Assembly (NCBI GenBank): GCA_051047955.1
Contig: JBPGPT010000056.1
Location: forward strand, 1 to 64,000
Length of the DNA stretch: 64,000 nucleotides
Direction of reading: 5' to 3'
DNA from: Cystobasidiomycetes sp. EMM_F5
Taxonomy: Eukaryota
Shown: piece by piece, positions 3,285 through 36,651 of the stretch
Layout of the letters: each line of letters starts with the position of its first letter
How positions within the stretch are numbered: the stretch's first letter is position 1
Notes under the pieces: model-generated
Databases searched by the model: none
What the model was told of the DNA's origin: nothing
Seen by the model: the letters and a program-made list of their open reading frames with translations, nothing else
Position numbers and translations under genes: made by a program

Positions 3285-5214
3285 ATGAGTATGAATATGA
3301 GTATGAGTAGCCTGTACGTAGTCTGGCTGAATGGTCACTGCTAATGCCCGGAAAGGAGCGAACACGTACTGACATTCCGCTTGTTATTCACTAATCTCTG
3401 GCAACATGGTCACTTGCAGACTCTCCGTAAAGGTGCTCTCCCTGTCTGGCATGTGCATTCTCATGACCGTACTCGCCATCGTAATGCACATCAGCCGCAC
3501 CCATATCGCTCCAGGACAACCGCGATACAAGGCCGCCTCTGCCGTTCTTCTGACCGAAGTCGGCAAGCTGCTCTGTTCACTCGGACTGGCATACAGGGAG
3601 TCTAGGAATCTCATGCGGAAAGAGCAGGCTGAGCAACAAAAGTCGGCATACTCTCACGATGGGGGAACGTACGAGATGAATGGCGGAAACGGCCATGCGA
3701 ATGGAAGTCATAGCCAATCGCAGTACGACAACGACAGCCAGGACGTTCTTCCACCTCCAGATGCTCAAGAAGAAAAGCAGGGACTACTGTCTCCCGCATC
3801 AGCTGCAGATCCGTCTTGGGGCCAGCCATCGTCTGGCGCTTCCGTCTTCCCTCCTTTCAGATGGAAAGGCAACGGACAGGATAAATCTAGCCATATACCC
3901 ATCACACCCAAAGCCATTGCACAGCGAACGTGGCAGGAAACCTTCTCGGGCGACTGGCTCAAACTCATCATACCCGCAATGCTCTTTACGATGCAGGGTA
4001 ATCTGGCATACTATGCCAGCAGCAATCTCACAGTACCAGTATTCCAAATCACATATCAATTAAAGGTGGGCTCGATTCACCGAATCCAAGCGCAACGTCT
4101 TTTGACTTGTTTTCTTCAACAGATTCCCGCAACGGCACTTTGTTCGGTATTGATGCTGAGTCGGGTATTGTCAAATCTACAATGGGCTTCAATCGCTCTG
4201 CTATCTATCGGCGTCGGCGTAGTTCAGCTTGCGTCTACGTCTTCGACATCAGCGCCTGTTTCAGCACCCGCTGCGCCAGTCCACTTTACTCCCAATACTG
4301 GCGATCCGCTGCTCCCTGATACAGCCGAAGCAATTGCTCGAGCGATACATCGCGCTCGAGGATTATTGGCGGACGGAAGTACAGTCGAAATGAATCAGTT
4401 TCTTGGACTAGCTGCTGTCGTTCTAGCTTGCCTATCTAGCGGTTTCGCGTCAGTCTACTTTGAGCGCGTTCTCAAGAAACCCAGCAAGCCTGTCGTAATC
4501 GGTGCTCCTAACGGCCTTCGCGGTTCCCCTGCAATCAATGTAACAGAAGCGTCAGAACCTCGCAAGACTGGATTGTGGGTCCGTAACATCCAACTTTCCA
4601 TTTTCTCACTGCTAGCCGGATCAATCATCTACATTGGGACATCGGTCGATTCGCTTTCCGACTTTTTCGTTGGCTTTACACCGATCGTGTGGTTTGTTGT
4701 CCTCCTGCAAGTCGCAGGTGGACTCACAGCAGCGCTCGTCATCAAGTATGCAGACAACATCGCAAAATCCTTCTCTGCTAGCGTCTCCATCATTCTCAGC
4801 TTTGGTGCGAGCGTAGTGCTTTTTGATTATAAACTCAGCTTGGGCGTTATCGCTGGCAGTGCAGCTGTCGTTGGAGCCACCTGGCTATTCAGTGTGTCCG
4901 CCTACATTTCAATACGAAGTCACAGCCATATTGGGACTTCTTGCTGACTTGTTCGTATTCAATGTGTGTATACAGATTCGGCACCACCTAAATCAACAAT
5001 CTCAGCTCAAGCCATGCCTTCGACGTTGAGCCCAATGCGGCGGTCAAGTCATCAGGGCTGGCCCCAACAGAACGGGACACCACATGGTCCATCTCCGAGG
5101 TCGACATCCATGACAGTCAGCAAGTCGCACGATTCGGAGATGTACGTCCGTCAACGATCACCCTCGCCTGGCATTGCTATGCGCGATGGATATTTCCCGC
5201 CTTCTAATGTTTAG
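3285..5214 (+). CDS. Golgi nucleotide-sugar (UDP-galactose-type, SLC35A-like) transporter
   Basis: Motifs AVLLTEVGKL, IPAMLFTMQGNL, FQITYQLK, SSGFASVYFERVLK, WVRNIQLS, IKYADNIAKSF. A short first exon (MSMNMSMSS) splices in frame via intron 3314-3419; last exon ends at 5214. Confidence 0.9.
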
Positions 5215-5416: not shown

Positions 5417-6309
5417 TCATATGAGTTTCTGCTTTGCAAACCATGTCTGTGGTAATGAAAAGAGATTCGTCGCGAGTCAGGAACAGGTCGTACAACAGCC
5501 AATTCACCCGAAAAACTCACCCTCAAAGAGCGCATCTGCCATATGCACATGCCAATCAACGTCACAATCTGGAGAAGTGACCAGTAGACTGTTCCAGAAT
5601 TTGTCCTGTCGCTTAGAGCTCGGAAATCGTGCTCCCTTTCGCGCTGATACTGCTGCTCTTTCCGTATATCTGCGAGCTTCTTGTTCAAGTCTCTCACCTT
5701 GCCCGCCAGATCTGTGACGTGCGACTTTTCAGACTCTTCGTCTACTCTGGCTTCCCCGACGCTTTGGATGGACTTAAGGTTAGTGGCGTGAATAACATAA
5801 AAGAGAAAAGGTGCCTACGCAATGTCGAAATGCATCCTTACACGCGGTGTACTGAACCACCCTCCCGTGTAGTTTGACCTCAGGCATATGGAATGATCCC
5901 CCGCTGCATGCGACGTGAACACAAACTTGCCGACTGCTGCTCCGCGCGTGTTGACTATACGTTCTTCCGACTCCGTTTCCTGCGAGTACGCCATTTAGAC
6001 GTTGTACAGTGAGCATGACGGCGTCCCACTACTTGCCTCTACTGTAATCTGGATTCCCAACCGGTCATTGATGATCCACCTTGCGTCGTCTACGGTCCAC
6101 TCCTCTGCCTTGTAGTGCCCCACGACAATCGTGTCCTTGGGCAGCTCCTCTAGAAAGCATCTCGTCTCGCCGGCCTGCCATTCGCAAGTAAGTATAGCCA
6201 AATCATCGCGTTGCAGCTTGTTCAGACTCACCTGGAGATAAAAGTATAGGGCGTGCGCCTGGCTGAAGAGCAGGGCGAGCAGCGCGGCAGTGAGCGAAGA
6301 GATGCGCAT
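5417..6309 (-). CDS. p24/emp24/gp25L cargo receptor, probably alpha subfamily (Erp1/TMED9-like)
   Basis: Signal peptide MRISSLTAALL...AHA, LYFYL, GETRCFLEELPKDT (GOLD domain), coiled coil YQREREHDFR, TM segment, C-terminal KQKLI dilysine. Confidence 0.9.
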
Positions 6310-6678
6310 CGTCGAGGCAGAGTCCAGCCGAGTATCGCTGGCTGATATCAAGATTATTGAAGCTGTACGCGTTTGTTGGGCAGTTTGAAGGCTACAGAGT
6401 CCGTTCAAAGACTGGCTGAATGGTAATCTTGCGTGTATGTTGGGGAGCAGTATTTGGTGTATGTCTCATTCAGCATGCGACCCTTGCATTGTATTGCTCC
6501 AATTACTCCAGTTCCAACCGTGTTTCAATTCAAAAGTTACTCTCTCTCTAACCCCCGAAACTATGACTGCTGCACCCACGCTCGCACAGCGCACAGACTG
6601 AGTATATGGCAGGACACGGACACTCAACGACGACCACTCTCAAATAATACGCCTTTCAAGCAAGATTGTCCGACCAAT

Positions 6679-9600
6679 ATGACCGATTCAATAGCGCAGT
6701 CTGGTGGAAATGGAATGGCCAGCTCATCGTCGAATTTCAGTCCTCCTCCTCCTCTGATCTCACCGCCAGAATCCCAATGGCCAGCCTACTTTTTCCCTCC
6801 ACTCGCTCAGCAGCGCATGGTCTTTTGCGTCGAGCTGTTGAAGCAGCAGGACGTGCAGTCGGTGGGCGGAGCGGCTGAACGATTATTGACAGGACTGACT
6901 GTGCGCATACAATTCATTATACTCACTCATACTCCTCTCAAACCTGTCATATATACCCCGGACTCTTGGCTGACGGTGGCGATATCCATCCCGCATATGG
7001 CGACCGTCGCTCGCTTGATGTGAAATGTGATACAACCATGCAATACTCTCTCGCTATGGTGTGCGCGTCGAACTCTGCGCTGCTACACGGATCCCGCGGT
7101 GCACACGGTTGATCACGTTGGCGATGCCGAACCGATAATATAATCTTCGACACGTCTGTGCGGGATCCATCAAAACACGTCCACGCACTCCTTACACGCA
7201 TTAAACTACGTCATCACGGTCGGTACAGGTGTGCGAACTGGGATGCGGCGATGGATCAGTCCTTCGACCAATGGTGAATGGAGCATCCCACAGCGATTCG
7301 TTCCCAGAGCCCTACGTCGAGGAACCACGCCCTTCCCAGCCCCCTACTCCTGTTGATCTCCCTGAAGACGGCGACGAAGAACAGGAGGAGCGGAACGTTG
7401 CATCCACCTCCACCTCTACGAGTCGGCGGATCCGCACAGCAAGCGGATCGACAGAAGAAGACGATACGGCCATCCAATCCAAATCTACATCATCTTCACT
7501 GTCTTCGCTCGACAATGTATCATCAAATAAAGCACCAGACTGGGGCATAAATCGTGCGATATTGGATGCCTTTCAGAAATTACCGCCTTCAAGATCTGTC
7601 GACAAAGAGCTACATTTGAGGCGAATAGCAGGCTTGGATATCGTACCAGAACACTTGGAACATGCCATTCTCGCTACGGCGCCTTCGGAAGAAGAACAAG
7701 CGAGTTTCGAAGCTGCGGCTGCGGTCATTGCGGCTCGTAAAGCGAACAAAGGTCGACAGCAAGGTACGCCAGCTAATCATTCTTGATCTCCAATAGACTA
7801 AAGTATACGCTGCCGACCTATATAGACGAAACAGATGCAGATGATGTGAATGCCGAATATTCATGGGCTCCCCCAGATCGATGGGAAGATTTACGCGTCG
7901 AGATCTGGCAAGGCAGTCTGGACGTGTACAATGAGGCCTTTGACAACTTCGAAGCCATCATCATGACTGAGGTCATTGAGCACCTCTATGAAAAGCAGCT
8001 CGACAAATTTCCAGAAATCCTCTTTGGTTCGTACAGGCCCAGAATTGTCGCAATCACCACGCCAAACTATGATTTTAACAAGTATTTCACGAGAAGGTCG
8101 ACAGAAATGGCAATGGCTCACAAAAAGAAGAAGAAGAACGCGGATATGGATGATGATGCGCAACTTGACGAGACGCAAACTGGGTTCTTGGATCCGACAG
8201 GGCGGACGGACCGTGTATTTCGTGATGCAGATCACAAGTTCGAGTGGACGCAACAGGAATTTGCAGCGTGGTGCGAGAAGATTACGTCGACTTATGAATA
8301 TTCAGTTACGATCACGGGCGTCGGCTCGCTTAAGAACTATTACGGTAAAGGAGGATTCCGGGGCTTGTCAGAGGACACTACACCGGCCAAATCCGCGACA
8401 GCCGAACAGCCCGAATGGGTCACGACGGCACTAGCTGAATGTCCCGGCGGCGACGCTTCAAAATTCTTCGCAACGCAATGTGCGGTCTTTAAACGGCGGT
8501 ACACGTATGAACAAGAAAGAAACCCTCGTTCGCCCGTACAATCTCCTCTCGCCTTTTACGGTAAATTACCAACGTCATCAAGTAATCCAGCATTAGCAAA
8601 TACCGCACCCGCTAGTCCCGGCTCTATAACGCGACCCGCTTCGCGAGGTCGGTCTGCTATTGCTATACCCGGGGCGACTGCACTGTCCGGCAGAGGCGCT
8701 TCCGGTTCAGGCTCCGGGAGTCGGGGACGGCTGTCAGGTACTACGTTGTTTGGTCAGGCCCCGGGTATGGCTGCGGGCTCATCACCTGCTTCTCCCAGTT
8801 CCATCATGACTCTGTCGTCTGTTGGAAATGGAAACTCAGCAAATAAATCAACTTCGGCACAGCCAACACAGCACAAACTCCTCAAAACGCACGTGTATCG
8901 CGCGTCGCCCTACGCCGGTAATCCACAAAATTTGCCATACATCAATAAAGTGGTGGAGAAGCTCATGCGCGAAAAGATGAGAATGAAGACTGTGTCATTG
9001 CGGGAACTGTGGGGTCGGAACGAGGTATCGAGAGCTTGCGGTGGCTACATCAACAAGATTATACAAGCTGCAATTGAAGACGGCAAAGAGAATCGTTTCG
9101 ACATGGAGTTTAAGCTGAGCCTTCTTGCTTCTGGCGCGTCACTTGAAGATGCCACCTTCCTAGTATTGAAAGATTTTGTTGAGGAAGAAGTCAAATGGAC
9201 GGGCTTGGTTGATGACGAGGACGATGAAGATGAAGGGAATGGGTATACGCAGTATGAAGGCGAACTATCAGATGACGACAGCGACGACCTCGAAAGCCTG
9301 AGGAAGGAAGCAAAGAAGCCGAAGAGAGTCTGGCCCAAGAAATTGAAAGCTCGGCCAGTTGCGGCGAAGGCAGCAGATACGATTGCTGTTACGCAACCGT
9401 CGTCTGCAGATATCGAAGCAGGAGCCTCAAGCATGACTATACGCGCTTCTGGGAAGCAGCAGTGGTCGCTCCCCACCGCTGGACTGGTGCCTGACGCCGA
9501 TGCTGTGGCTGGATGGGATGTCATCCCGAAAGACGCGAGTGGTAAACCTACGCACAAACTGGAAAATGGGCTGCTCTGGCCTATGGCAAATGACGCAAGC

Positions 9601-9735
9601 GAAAAAGCGGACTGGGGCCCTGCTCCGGCAGAAACGGCAGAGGACGCAGCGTTGTGGGGTTCGACTAAAATCAGCAGCTTAATGACGGAGGAAGAGTGGC
9701 AGGCTGAGAATCCAAGTACTAGTGGATGGGACTAA
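6679..9735 (+). CDS. HEN1: HEN1-family small RNA 3'-terminal 2'-O-methyltransferase with long C-terminal extension
   Basis: FFPPLAQQR (FxPP motif), ELGCGDG (SAM binding), GLDI, TEVIEHL, TTPNYDFN, FRDADHKFEW. Introns at 6862-7228 and about 7764-7825. Confidence 0.9.
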
Positions 9736-11963: not shown

Positions 11964-13480
11964 ATGGACGACGACGTCTCAAAGGACATCCTCGTCAAGC
12001 GGCAGCGGGGACTCGAGGCGCAGCGGGCGTTCAGGAAGCGCAAGGCAGCGCATCTGCAGGACCTCGAGAAGCGGGTAGCGCTGTACGAAGTCGAGAATGC
12101 CCAGCTCAAGGGAGAGAATGACCGGCTCAAGGAGGAGAACAGCTGGCTGAGGGCGCAGGCGACGATATCGACATCGACAAACTATACGAACGCTTCCTCG
12201 TCGTCTGGGGCAGATGGCTTTCATTCGATGAATAATAACGAAAACGCAACAAACCAAGAACACACCACAGCAGCATTGCCCACACACTCACCGTCACTGT
12301 CGTCCTCGAGCAACACCTCACCTCGCAGCAGACGGCGCTTCTCGGACGATGCTCCCATGCCAGAACCCGGGCACCGTCATGCACCGCCATTGTCGACGAA
12401 TGCGGCCCAACCCAGCGTGCTTTTACCGCAGCCTCAGCGACCTCGACTAGACCACGCACACTCGCATACATCCTCTCACCATCATGTTGCGAAATCTCCA
12501 AAACGAGGACATACTCTGCCGAGCATTGGCGTTTGGGAGCATACACTCGACCGAAGAGAGATGGTGAATATCGTTCGTATACGAAAAGTCATGAGCTAAC
12601 GATGTTTTATTGACAGCACCCACCTACATACAGACTCCAGCATGGCCAGCCTCAGCCAGCCTCGTCAGCTTCAGCGCTATCACCGCCGAGCATTCTGCCG
12701 CCACCGCACACTTACCAAGACTATACAGCTCCGTCGGCATGGCTTCCGCAACCAAGTACGCACAATCTCAAACAGCTGCACCCGACATCTGGACACCACT
12801 CGAGTCGGACAATGACTCCTGCATCGCTCGTCCTCTCGCCAGGCAGGCACTGCGACTCTCCACCTCCGGAAGAATCGCACGGCGGAGGTGAGGGGCCGTA
12901 CAAGAAGATACGACCCCTCCCACCTCGGCAGAGTCTCTTGCGATCTTCGACAGCCACTACTCATGCATTACCGAAATACAGCAATGCCCTTCACAACCCT
13001 CTTCCTCCCCTCCCTTCACCAGGACTGTCCCATTCCGCAACACACCCTAATACGCTCAGTGCCGCTGCTCACCAGACATTCCTTCCTCCCCTGTCATACT
13101 CCATATCGTCATCCTTCGATTCTGCGGCTTCCTCTCACATGATTTCCACTCGCAATTCCCGGTCTCGTACCTCAAGCAGCGAGCATAGCGCAGCGACAGG
13201 AGGACACGAAAACAAGTCTTCAACCATGTTCAATCATGCACATGATGTATCCCAGGCTGAGACTGCTGCTCTACCACCTCTCTCGGTCGCTGGTCAAGAA
13301 GAGGCAACGGTATGCTGTAATGGAGTCATCAAGTGCCCGGATATCGATATCGATGGTCGACCTTCGGACACAAGCACGGTCCCTCGCCCAATGCCGCGTA
13401 AACAGCAGTCGATTGAGGAAGACTACTTTGAAGTGTTTGGTCACCTCCCGACGGCAGAGGCGACAATAGTCGAGTCGTAA
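11964..13480 (+). CDS. bZIP transcription factor with C-terminal CCxGxxxC motif
   Basis: Basic region KRQRGLEAQRAFRKRK plus leucine zipper. Intron 12564-12616 joins in frame to the 12812 ORF, which contains CCNGVIKC. Confidence 0.85.
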
Positions 13481-33247: not shown

Positions 33248-34290
33248 TCACAGGCTGACTGCCTGATCTTTTGCTAGCCTTGGTCTTTGCCTTGCTTGCA
33301 TATTCTCAGCATCGCCATTGTCTGTTGAAGACTTCGCCTTCGCCTTTAGGTCCTTGACGGCCTCGATCTCCTCCTGTATGCAGAGTGAGTGCATGTACGC
33401 AGGCTGTCTCCAGGAAAAGCTTACTTCTGCAGTACTGATCAGCAGGAAGGTCTCTGCGGGGATCTCGATCGTTGTGAACCATATACTCCGCCAGATATTC
33501 TGGGCAGACTCATCCGCACTGGGTGAGGACACTGCATGCCAGCTACTCGCACCTGCTGACCGGTCCTCATAGGCCACGTTTCTGTATTTCTGCGGGACAT
33601 ATTGCCAGAGCTGTTCCTGCGACTTTGCGAACTATGAGTTTGTCTGGACCCTCTGGTGGAGCAGCTGCCAAAAGGTAGCTGTGACCGGCCAGCGACAGAT
33701 TCTGCGGACCAAAATGATCAGTCTGATGCGCCTCGTCATCCAGCCGCATCAGCACTCACGGCATACTTCGCAGCTTGTGCCTGCACTGAAGTCAGTATTG
33801 TCCTCAGCGCTGAAGATATTTTCCTCACGCGCTGAGCCGGACGCAGACTATACGAAGAGGCGTTGGCCGCCGGCTCGACGAATTCGACCATGGCTGCTCG
33901 CCATGCCTCGGCTGAGAGGGCAGCACTGACGTCTGCCTCTTTTTCTTGGCATCGCGCTTTCAGAAGCGCGATGTCCTTCCTCATCTCCTTCATTTCCTTG
34001 CAAGCTCATTTTATTGCAGTATTGGCGTCTATCCGAGTCTCTGTCATCTGGTGTCATACACGGCAGCATCTGGACCCACTAGGCATACTGATTGGCGTGC
34101 ATGAACAGTGTCCCCGTTTTCGTTCTCTTAATGTACAAACGCACCGGCATTGTCAGAAAGCTGCAAACTAGCGGTTGCAAAGTGGTGCTTACGCGCAACA
34201 GCAGCCAGGCCGTAGGCGATGGGTATCGCCTCATAAGCTCCGCTTACTGGACGTTCGTCTTTCCGACGGCCCGTGAGCGAATGTACTCAT
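33248..34290 (-). CDS. Hypothetical spliced protein, boundaries uncertain
   Basis: Adjacent minus-strand ORFs (33736-33993, 33567-33755, 33248-33577) with splice-like signals and a coiled-coil-like segment; no family recognised. Confidence 0.35.
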
Positions 34291-34582
34291 CGACTGTCCC
34301 GAAGGAATATTGTCAAGAAAGAAGGAAAGAAGGAAGCGTCAGACAAGTTTACATTTCAACCTGTCAGTCGTTGATCGAGTCCTCCACGCGAACAATCTCA
34401 TTGAGTGGTGTATCAGTCGCTTGAATCGTTTCGTTGCTAAACTTCCGAGTCGCCTGTCAGTGTCGTTGCAGATTGCCCCCACTGATTACTTTGCGTATGC
34501 GACAAACAACAGTGCAAAGAACGATTTCAAAACAGTCCGACCGTACACCGCTGTTACTTGATATCTTCTTCCAAAGCCATCT

Positions 34583-34641
34583 CGAGCTTCGTGCACCGAG
34601 CTTCGTGCACCGAGCTTCGTGCACCGAGCTTCGTGCACCGA
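34583..34641. repeat. Perfect 14-bp tandem repeat (CGAGCTTCGTGCAC)x4
   Basis: Directly visible; lies about 55 nt downstream of the ERG13 stop codon. Confidence 0.95.
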
Positions 34642-34695
34642 CGAAGCTGTCGCAATAGTCACCTGTGACTGTCGAACCGCTTTCCCTTGCAGTAC

Positions 34696-36651
34696 TTATG
34701 CCTTGACGCCATAGAACCGCCTGTTCATCTCGTCAACCTTTTCGAGGTAGTATGTGCCCGCAAACAGCTTGTCGTTTGATCCGGCAGGCGTATAGTTCTT
34801 GATGTTGTGCTTCTCCTCTCGCAACTGCACAATTGCAAATGCAGCAAACGATGTCAGTCAATGTTATAGTAAAATCAATCGGTGTGCAGGCCTAGCTCAC
34901 TTTCAAAGCATCAACAAACTCCTGGCATGGTCTCACTTCCATAGACGCAAGTCTCTCCTTCAGGTTCAATGTTGTCCTGATCGAGCTGGTGTCACCTCGG
35001 ACGTAGATGGTGAAGAACGACGCAGCGAGGCCGCTGCCGAAAGAGAACAGAGCGATACGCTTGCCTTGAAGCTCCTCTGGTGCCACCGAGTCGACTATGC
35101 TGGCAAGACCGCCGTATACAGATGCCGTGTACATGTTGCCTAGCCGGCGCATGCACTGCGTTGCGGGCCAAACGGCGCTCTTGTATTTGTCTGCTGAAGC
35201 AGCGATGAACAACTTTTCGCAGTCCTTGTTGAGCACAGACTTGTTGCGTGGCATTGTTTTGAACTCTTCAGGAATGTGAGAGAATCGCTCGGCAGTAGGA
35301 TCCGCAAGGTAGTCAATGTAGAAGAGTCGAGCAGTCGCTTTTTGTACAAGCTTGCCGTATGGCCCGTGCCAGCCAATGTAGTCGAAGGAATCGACAGTGA
35401 TGGTGCTGTCGGTGGAATGATTGCCGTTCACTCCGTTGGCTTTGGTGGCAGACTTGCCGGCCTTTGCGCGCTTGGCTGCCTTTGCCTTGTAATTCTCGTA
35501 AGACTGCTCGAGGCCGCCAATGTAAGAGTGCAGAGTGAGTGGCCCATCGACTGAGGGGTACTCAGATGCCAAGTCTGGCTTGAAGAAATCCCACCAGTTC
35601 CCAACACAGTTTCCGTGAGTGGCTGCATGATATTATTAACAAGATAAGCTTTGGAATAACACACTGAGCGTAAAGGAACGGACGTTCGATAACCATGGGT
35701 GCATCAGGACCGATGAGAATAGCTGCGGCGCCGGCGCCTCCGACAGGTCGAGCAGATCCTTCAGCGTATACGGCAATATCGCCGCAGACCATGAGGGCGT
35801 AACGGCCATCCCAAGATTCGGACTGCACCCAGTTGACGCAGTTGAAGAGCGCAGCTGTGCCACCGTAGCAGGCATTCTTGCTGTCAATGCCTTCGATGTC
35901 GTAGTTGCCGCTTGGCGCAAACAGATCCATGAGTACAGTCTTCACAGACTTGGACTTGTCAATGATGGACTCTGTGCCGACATCGAGCCGACCGATAGTG
36001 CGTGGGTCAATGTTGTACTTCTTTAGCAGATTGGAGGTGACTGTTGACAGGTGCGCTTAAATTCGCATCGATGAAAATGACTGCTTCTCTACACACCGGT
36101 GAGGGCATATGAATTGATGTCTTCATTGTCACTGCTGAAGGCCATGTATCTGGAATGCGGAGAATCAGCGGAATCAGCGGAACCATCGTCAGCATGTAGA
36201 CATGCTGAGTCAGTCATAAAACTCACTCCTGGCCTAGCCCCTTCGTATACTGCATGTGCGAATGTAGCCAACATTGTTAGCCGCTGGCGAAGCAAGACAG
36301 CGGATAGCTTCCCACCTTTCCGGCTGCGACTCCATCAAACTTCTCGAGCTCCGTCTCGTCGATGCACGTCGGTGGGAAATAAATCTCAATAGCGTCTGTT
36401 TAGGGATGTTGTTGCAGATTTGTAGGGTTGAGGCACGAGCGCAAGTCGGAGTTTGCGAGGAGATGGAATACCAGCGACGACAGAAGCGTGCACATTAGAC
36501 CATTAGCAATGCCAGTACAGCCTGCCATTTTGTATCAAAGCTCAGGCTCACGTATTCCGACATTCTCGGGTCTCTTTGAATCTGAGACTTGGAATGGAAA
36601 CGCAGCTCCCTCGAGGTGCAGGTTTGGTGCTGAGCCTGATGGTGCTGCCAT
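34696..36651 (-). CDS. ERG13: Hydroxymethylglutaryl-CoA synthase
   Basis: [42 protein letters not shown] (catalytic Cys), [23 protein letters not shown]. Confidence 0.97.

Follow-up and report, generated by a model that had tools for sequence, protein, structure and literature searches.

Human introns with a distant branch point are marked by an AG exclusion zone (AGEZ) whose 5′ end carries a branch sequence and a pyrimidine tract; AG frequency is normal upstream, and the first downstream AG serves as the 3′ splice site (Gooding 2006, PMC1431707). Under the criterion used there, the branch sequence lies inside the zone or within about 15 nt upstream of it. The cases described include exon 11 of human PTB (AGEZ 381), where UACUGAC at −351 is essential and a good branch sequence at −51 is dispensable, and exon 23 of human GABBR1 (AGEZ 288), with the branch sequence CACUGAC at −275 (PMC1431707). 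Here we analyse the first intron of a HEN1 gene (intron 1) in the fungus Cystobasidiomycetes sp. EMM_F5 (assembly GCA_051047955.1); the stretch studied, positions 1 to 64,000 of contig JBPGPT010000056.1, is referred to as the window. We consider it slightly better than an even bet that this is a human-type distant-branch-point intron with an AGEZ in a Pucciniomycotina fungus.

Long distances from branch point to 3′ splice site have also been described in fungi. Spliceosome profiling has revealed early or distal branching experimentally in Cryptococcus neoformans and S. pombe, especially in introns longer than 150 nt, and many of the early-branch distances were judged possibly too long for splicing's second step (bioRxiv 10.1101/224170). 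Distal branch points with consensus sequences are likewise mentioned for S. pombe (PMC4079972). In introns of the COF1/UBC13 type, the distance reaches 166 nt in Saccharomyces, 471 nt in C. glabrata and 185 nt in K. lactis, and the authors of that study contrast such structured yeast introns with the unstructured, AG-free human type (PMC3239191). Fungal branch sites typically lie ~13–25 nt from the intron end, and the most frequent branch-like hexamers of Cryptococcus and Ustilago are of the ctgac type (PMC2483917). Within the literature collection searched, we found no published description of a fungal AGEZ.

Intron 1 of HEN1 and its borders

The HEN1 gene model was built by translation and comprises three exons on the + strand (6679–9735), encoding a protein of 875 residues. 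Intron 1 separates the first two exons and is delimited by the following features:

6862–7228, + strand: HEN1 intron 1, 367 nt, phase 0, GTGGGC...ACAG
6862–6867, + strand: 5′ splice site GTGGGC, with G at +5 as in local donors
7227–7228, + strand: 3′ splice site AG (ACAG/G), the first AG after 6891–6892
6893–7226, + strand: AG-free zone (the AGEZ), 334 nt by direct count

Exon 1 ends in ...YFFPPLAQQRMVFCVELLKQQDVQS and exon 2 starts with VCELGCGDGSVLRPM. The conserved block that results from joining them is uninterrupted and of equal length in the homologs P0003 (from Cystobasidium minutum) and P0006, and an equivalent block with identical spacing is found in P0017, P0019, P0021 and P0025. By this comparison, excision of exactly 6862–7228 restores a contiguous conserved sequence. 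When compared by blastp, the spliced protein aligned across the junction with residues 11–93 of P0003 (54% identity, E = 2.6e-27) and with P0006 in a single alignment over 34–692, and read-through into intron 1 meets a stop after 9 codons. Because of the homolog spacing across the junction and the stop on read-through, we place the borders at 6862 and 7228 and regard intron 1 as a genuine spliceosomal intron. P0006 is itself an 848-aa relative encoded on a contig no longer than 2790 nt, in one unbroken open reading frame (ORF) that spans the junction, and is either transcript-derived or the product of an intron-less gene in that relative. A U12-type (minor) intron was rejected by comparing the donor GTGGGC with the U12 consensus; the TCCTTAC near the 3′ end of intron 1 bears only a resemblance to the branch consensus of that class.

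The last 334 nt before the acceptor contain no AG

The dinucleotide AG occurs in intron 1 only at 6870–6871, 6891–6892 and 7227–7228. Base composition in the zone between the last two is even (79 A, 101 C, 71 G and 83 T), and each of the other 15 dinucleotides is present at 9–33 copies (GA at 17, and CT, the complement of AG, at 26), so that only AG, and only on the sense strand, is depleted. The number of AGs expected in the zone is 16.7 from its own composition or 21.5 from the AG frequency of the window (0.0644). By exact calculation, the probability of finding none in 334 nt is 1.3e-8 with the zone composition and 2.2e-10 with that of the window, and 1.8e-6 such runs are expected on both window strands. 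No AG-free run on either strand exceeds the zone, the next being 151 nt (+) and 124 nt (−), and it is also the longest gap for any dinucleotide of two different letters in the window, ahead of a 209-nt gap for AC. In the 31 nt upstream (6862–6892), a very small sample, there are 2 AGs. The last AG-free gap measures 13–68 nt in 13 putative short introns of the window, versus 334 nt in intron 1. As the run ends on an acceptor fixed by homology and starts at a branch consensus, it is non-random. Nested or recursive splicing of intron 1 was considered and excluded, as the zone offers no AG as an inner acceptor.

A gap of similar size was found only for the self-overlapping dinucleotide GG (337 nt, 34407–34746). 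This GG-free stretch, the longest of the window, lies just past the 3′ end of an HMG-CoA synthase gene (− strand) and includes a perfect tandem array at 34583–34641 (14-nt unit, 4.2 copies).

Branch-site signals in intron 1 and in neighbouring introns

The branch-like sequences of intron 1, together with a tract that may accompany them, are as follows:

6893–6899, + strand: consensus branch sequence GACTGAC, forming the first 7 bases of the zone, one base after the AG at 6891–6892
6906–6945, + strand: G-free tract of 40 nt, 65–70% pyrimidine, just 3′ of the putative branch site
6970–6974, + strand: second CTGAC (GGCTGAC, in GGCTGACGG), with its A at 6973, 255 nt from the intron end; an alternative or additional distal branch candidate
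7191–7195, + strand: weak proximal branch candidate CTTAC, with its A at 7194, 34 nt from the intron end; the sole yTnAy in the last 60 nt

The putative branch A of GACTGAC, at 6898, is position 37 of the intron and lies 330 nt from its last base. Matches to CTRAY start at 6895 and 6970 only, and there are none in the last 250 nt. The tract at 6906–6945 is the longest G-free run of the window on the + strand (versus a maximum of 39 nt on the − strand) and is a candidate equivalent of a polypyrimidine tract.

To define the local norm, introns of the window were predicted from ORF continuity combined with donor and acceptor patterns, and 21 candidate rows were examined. Thirteen of these look like real short introns of 44–102 nt, with a median near 61 nt. 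An NCTRAY motif with its A 16–34 nt from the end is present in 9/21 rows, mostly as ACTGAC, GCTGAC/T or GCTAAC/T; ACTGAC is the branch-like motif in three of the local putative introns. The acceptor is the first AG after the motif in all 9 NCTRAY rows, although one row skips an AG 4 nt past the A, and the first-AG rule for this reason appears to fit this organism. The branch A of the local putative introns lies ~24–79 from the donor, a range that includes position 37 of HEN1. Five motif-less rows, weak or located within long ORFs, are likely to be false, and two long predicted candidates contain many AGs (24 in 264 nt and 15 in 247 nt).

An AG was found directly 5′ of the putative branch motif in five introns: 12573–12616, 33702–33759 (−), 35623–35683 (−), HEN1 intron 1 (6891–6899) and, in a metagenome locus introduced below (L002), 4479–4530. 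The contexts are AG/CTAAC, AG/ACTGAT, AG/CTTAT and AG/GACTGAC, and the arrangement is due to chance or else to a branch-site context that is extended in these fungi.

These results bear out most of what the original prediction had said of the DNA itself. It had described a 367-nt intron splitting QS/VCELGCGDG in a HEN1 gene, in agreement with the identical spacing of the homologs and with the matches to PDB sequences and homologs reported below, and its estimate of about six times the typical length fits the 13 putative short introns obtained from ORF continuity. The absence of AG from 6891–6892 to the acceptor at 7227–7228 was confirmed by the count, and the consensus GACTGAC near the donor (6893–6899) is present as described. 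Its statement that no CTRAY lies near the acceptor holds, but it overlooked the weaker CTTAC at 7191–7195; as a similar CTTAT is likely used locally, to deny any branch point near the acceptor would go too far.

Orthologous introns at the HEN1 junction

Metagenome contigs were scanned with an alignment of the HEN1 catalytic core, which yielded 62 loci, five of which cover the junction (L001, L002, L005, L006 and L018). All five are distant relatives, with a core identity to the window of 37–42% for L001, L002, L005 and L006 and 26% for L018. In three of the five (L002, L005 and L006), an intron sits at the phase-0 boundary that intron 1 occupies (...S / V-x-[DE]-x-GCG), and the intron position is therefore old in Basidiomycota. 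No intron was found at the junction in L001 (rust-like) or L018 (distant).

The intron of L002 (4479–4530), a locus nearest to Cystobasidium and Sporobolomyces proteins, is 52 nt long. It has the donor GTGGGT, three AGs upstream of the branch site, and GCTAAC at positions 33–38, which places the A at position 37, 15 nt from the end. L005 and L006 are nearly identical Agaricomycetes-like loci (5422–5560 and 2306–2445, respectively), each with an intron of 49 nt; the contig names of these two loci share a sample prefix and the loci are few substitutions apart, possibly representing two haplotypes or strains. Intron 1 thus shares its boundary with all three orthologs, and with L002 a GTGGGY donor and a branch A at position 37 as well. 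It differs from these introns of 49–52 nt, in which the branch A lies ~15–20 nt from the AG and AGs occur upstream of the branch site, by a surplus of ~315 nt located between the branch consensus and the acceptor, while its donor-to-branch module (GTGGGC, A at 37) resembles that of the short orthologs.

Comparison with human and fungal distant-branch introns

Like the human AGEZ introns, intron 1 has a zone that ends at the acceptor, with NACUGAC at its 5′ edge, followed by a candidate pyrimidine tract, and AGs upstream; no stable structure is present, and 334 nt falls in the same size range. When the PMC1431707 criteria are applied, a long AG-free gap, a branch consensus at the 5′ end of the zone and AGs upstream are all found. 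Unlike its human counterparts, intron 1 resides in a fungus with ~60-nt introns, its branch consensus lies beside the donor (position 37) rather than deep in the intron, its tract mixes A, C and T instead of being U-rich, nothing points to alternative splicing, and its branch site is a candidate read from the sequence.

The early-branching introns of Cryptococcus offer a second parallel, as intron 1 belongs to a basidiomycete with a narrow range of short introns, exceeds 150 nt (367 nt versus a median near 61 nt), and has a consensus A at short-intron distance from the donor, an assignment to this class made on sequence only. The resulting distance from branch to 3′ splice site is also far above the typical 15–30 nt. 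In contrast to HEN1, branches in C. neoformans and S. pombe were observed directly and many are suspected to be unproductive, and AG-free zones are not mentioned in the available text of that report (bioRxiv 10.1101/224170). The AG-free zone of HEN1 argues that such early branches do proceed to the first AG. With the COF1/UBC13 introns of Saccharomycotina, intron 1 shares a fungal host and a very long putative branch-to-3′ splice site distance. Those introns need a stem-loop, which masks the silent AGs that they contain, whereas 6893–7226 is devoid of AG and shows no selected structure that would shorten the distance. Taken as a fungal case of the known distant-branch-point AGEZ type, HEN1 intron 1 is partly supported, from the sequence of one locus.

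A human-type AGEZ intron in HEN1 would work as follows. The first 38 bases would correspond to the donor-to-branch module that a ~50-nt intron of this lineage normally has, with ~315 extra bases placed between that module and the acceptor. In the first step, branching would occur at the donor-proximal A 6898, with A 6973 in the second CTGAC as a perhaps additional site, and in the second step the exons would be ligated at the next AG, 330 nt from the former or 255 nt from the latter. Any intervening AG would be used as an acceptor and wreck the reading frame, and because a new AG would have this effect, purifying selection would keep the 334 bases free of AG. The product would be a lariat with a 37-nt loop and a 330-nt tail. 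We infer that the branch site is used, that the first AG is selected over 330 nt, and that selection is the cause of the depletion. Near-donor branching followed by scanning to the first AG, as the original prediction had proposed, is thereby retained as the best-supported reading, consistent with the AGEZ hallmarks and with early branching in basidiomycetes; in that reading the branch site is assigned by inference, and a proximal CTTAC exists. The suggestion of a regulated splicing step was dropped, as nothing indicates regulation; for HEN1, nothing beyond ordinary constitutive splicing is indicated.

Several observations weigh against this reading. The two CTRAY motifs in 367 nt are no more than expected by chance (0.0031 per nt in the window), and T accounts for only about a third of the tract that follows the putative branch site, which is interrupted by many As and is not U-rich. 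The A of CTTAC, at 7194, falls within the local range of branch-to-AG distances, and the local intron set to which intron 1 is compared consists of predictions. In addition, CTTAT is probably the branch site of the HMG-CoA synthase intron at 35623–35683 (−), which sits between the N and C domains of that protein in a Pfam search of 38 ORF pieces; because CTTAT likely serves in this domain-supported local intron, the CTTAC near the HEN1 acceptor is a credible candidate. Finally, long branch-to-3′ splice site distances in S. cerevisiae need stem-loops (PMC3239191), and HEN1 intron 1 shows no selected structure.

Alternative explanations

As the main rival, productive branching may instead fall on CTTAC, a weak site whose A (7194) lies close to the acceptor, at 34 nt, with the strong upstream sites branching early and unproductively in the manner of long Cryptococcus introns, and AGs purged because they would act as wrong acceptors. 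We consider this unlikely, though worth serious attention. It would place the branch at a normal distance from the acceptor, draws on the probable CTTAT branch site of the HMG-CoA synthase intron, whose position is backed by Pfam domain continuity, and agrees with the finding that early branches are common in introns longer than 150 nt, many of them thought too distant from the 3′ splice site to allow the second step (bioRxiv 10.1101/224170). One point mutation would abolish each strong upstream site, yet GACTGAC persists and 334 nt stay AG-free. The sequence after CTTAC is poor in T (7/33), and if AGs 100–300 nt past the upstream sites are harmful, long-range selection of the first AG is already conceded.

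Alternatively, the intron may be of the structured yeast type, with a distal branch and an acceptor that a selected stem-loop draws near, the arrangement of COF1/UBC13 in S. cerevisiae, in place of an unstructured search for the first AG. Folding does compact the spacer, as A 6898 and the acceptor AG are on average 47.6 graph steps apart over 200 sampled structures, versus 329 nt linear, and one local element folds better than expected:

6887–6949, + strand: local hairpin around the putative branch sequence and the G-free tract, −11.3 kcal/mol, z = −2.17; 4/200 shuffles fold as well

Its stem is also present in the minimum free energy (MFE) and centroid structures of the whole intron. Any fold compacts the spacer, however: in 80 shuffled spacers (mononucleotide shuffles, in which AG-freeness is not kept) the distance was 43.3 ± 7.5, with 79% at or below the native value, so the effective distance is no shorter than in shuffled sequence. 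The MFE of the whole intron, −103.1 kcal/mol, compares with −102.75 ± 5.1 kcal/mol for shuffles (z = −0.07), 45/100 of which fold as well. Structured yeast introns keep silent, masked AGs (PMC3239191), and the HEN1 zone has zero. On this modelling, ordinary folding would account for the compaction and a selected global structure is rejected, which makes this explanation very improbable.

An equally slim case can be made for the avoidance of AG on the sense strand serving some other element, such as an RNA element that binds protein or is non-coding, a small RNA hosted by the intron, or a signal at the DNA level. The unusual length of the intron, its odd G-free tract and its hairpin would be in keeping with such an element. 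Against it, both ends of the zone coincide with splicing signals, and searches for other content were negative. Rfam, which covers described families only, gave 0 matches at E ≤ 10 over 6400–7700. The three coding ORFs in or overlapping the intron, 6433–7023 (+, 196 aa), 6947–7201 (−, 84 aa) and 6886–7035 (−), were rejected as genes with 0 Pfam families; the 196-aa and 84-aa ORFs through the zone probably exist as a side effect of the sense strand lacking TAG. An internal duplication was also rejected, the two halves aligning with a score of 17 versus 15.7 ± 2.4 for shuffles (86/300 as good). No copy of intron 1 was found elsewhere in the window, where matches reach 13–15 nt only, and a mobile-element origin is not supported.

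Chance or a neutral history, whether as a fluke of a very large scan or as a young insertion lacking AG, is barely credible. Independent-base models extrapolated to ~250,000 windows scanned give roughly 0.5–27 such runs somewhere by chance, but the expectation for this window is 1.8e-6, and the run meets a homology-fixed acceptor at one end and a branch consensus at the other. About 150 positions of the zone are one mutation away from AG (79 A without a following G and 71 G without a preceding A), and because of this, neutral persistence would need an insert that is very young and lacked AG from the start. A faulty gene model or a dead gene, by pseudogene insertion or through an internal exon within 6862–7228, has next to nothing in its favour given three open exons, an 875-aa protein aligning to P0003 and P0006 across the junction, an intron at the same boundary in L002, L005 and L006, and an AG-free zone in which an internal acceptor is impossible.

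The host gene

The remaining features of the gene are:

6679–6861, + strand: HEN1 exon 1, 61 codons by translation, ending ...DVQS and carrying the conserved YFFPPLxxQR
7229–7763, + strand: HEN1 exon 2, opening with VCELGCGDG
7764–7825, + strand: HEN1 intron 2, 62 nt, GTACGC...ATAG, an ordinary short intron
7826–9735, + strand: HEN1 exon 3, methyltransferase core and long C-terminal extension, with the stop codon ending at 9735

Either of two in-frame ATGs, at 6679 and 6715, may be the start codon. VCELGCGDG, which corresponds to x-[DE]-x-GCG-x-G, is what we take to be the SAM-binding "motif I" region. When the exon 3 translation was compared with PDB sequences, it matched human HENMT1 (5wy0, E = 2.2e-17; 4xcx, E = 2.8e-17), bacterial Hen1 (3jwg, 3jwh, 3jwi and 3jwj) and Arabidopsis HEN1 (3htx, E = 2e-12). 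In a protein search the best named homolog was a hypothetical protein of C. minutum (47% identity to exon 3), followed by proteins of rusts, Sporidiobolales and Agaricomycetes, a ranking that points to a Pucciniomycotina fungus lacking close kin in the protein collection; the proteins nearest to the window HEN1, among them P0002, P0004 and P0005, came from ENA/Logan. Based on the PDB sequence matches and the homologs, we assign the gene to HEN1/HENMT1, the small-RNA 2′-O-methyltransferase. A FxPxLxxxR block precedes x-[DE]-x-GCG-x-G at fixed spacing in the window and 9 homologs, and the FFP-to-GCG distance of the Pucciniomycotina homologs equals that of the window HEN1.

No Pfam family scored above threshold for the three HEN1 exon pieces taken singly. 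The C-terminal extension (~8530–9735, in exon 3) contains blocks common to the Pucciniomycotina homologs, for example around HKLLK...AGNP of the alignment consensus, and, as it matches no Pfam family, appears to be an undescribed domain of fungal HEN1 proteins. A divergent gene of the emp24/GOLD family (5995–6408, −) starts ~370 nt upstream of the HEN1 start codon, and the two genes probably share a promoter region.

Implications for splicing in short-intron fungi

If branching occurs at position 37, HEN1 intron 1 would be a natural substrate in which the signals for the first and second steps are 330 nt apart amid introns of ~60 nt. That basidiomycete spliceosomes ligate exons at the first AG 330 nt past a donor-proximal branch, without a dedicated RNA structure, is a tentative proposal to which we give somewhat less than an even chance. 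If true, long-range selection of the first AG would not be confined to vertebrates, in contrast with the stem-loop dependence of S. cerevisiae, and the linear first-AG search of human introns, together with its AGEZ footprint, would operate in fungi with short introns. Long fungal introns might then form a recurrent class composed of a ~40-nt donor-branch module and a long AG-free tail. For HEN1 itself, a slow second step might set the output of the gene. Branch-point predictors and gene finders that search only near the acceptor would misread such introns, and because TAG cannot occur in AG-free tails, these tails would create spurious ORFs. The length of the AGEZ relative to that of the intron would offer a simple genome-wide signature of how fungi handle over-long introns.

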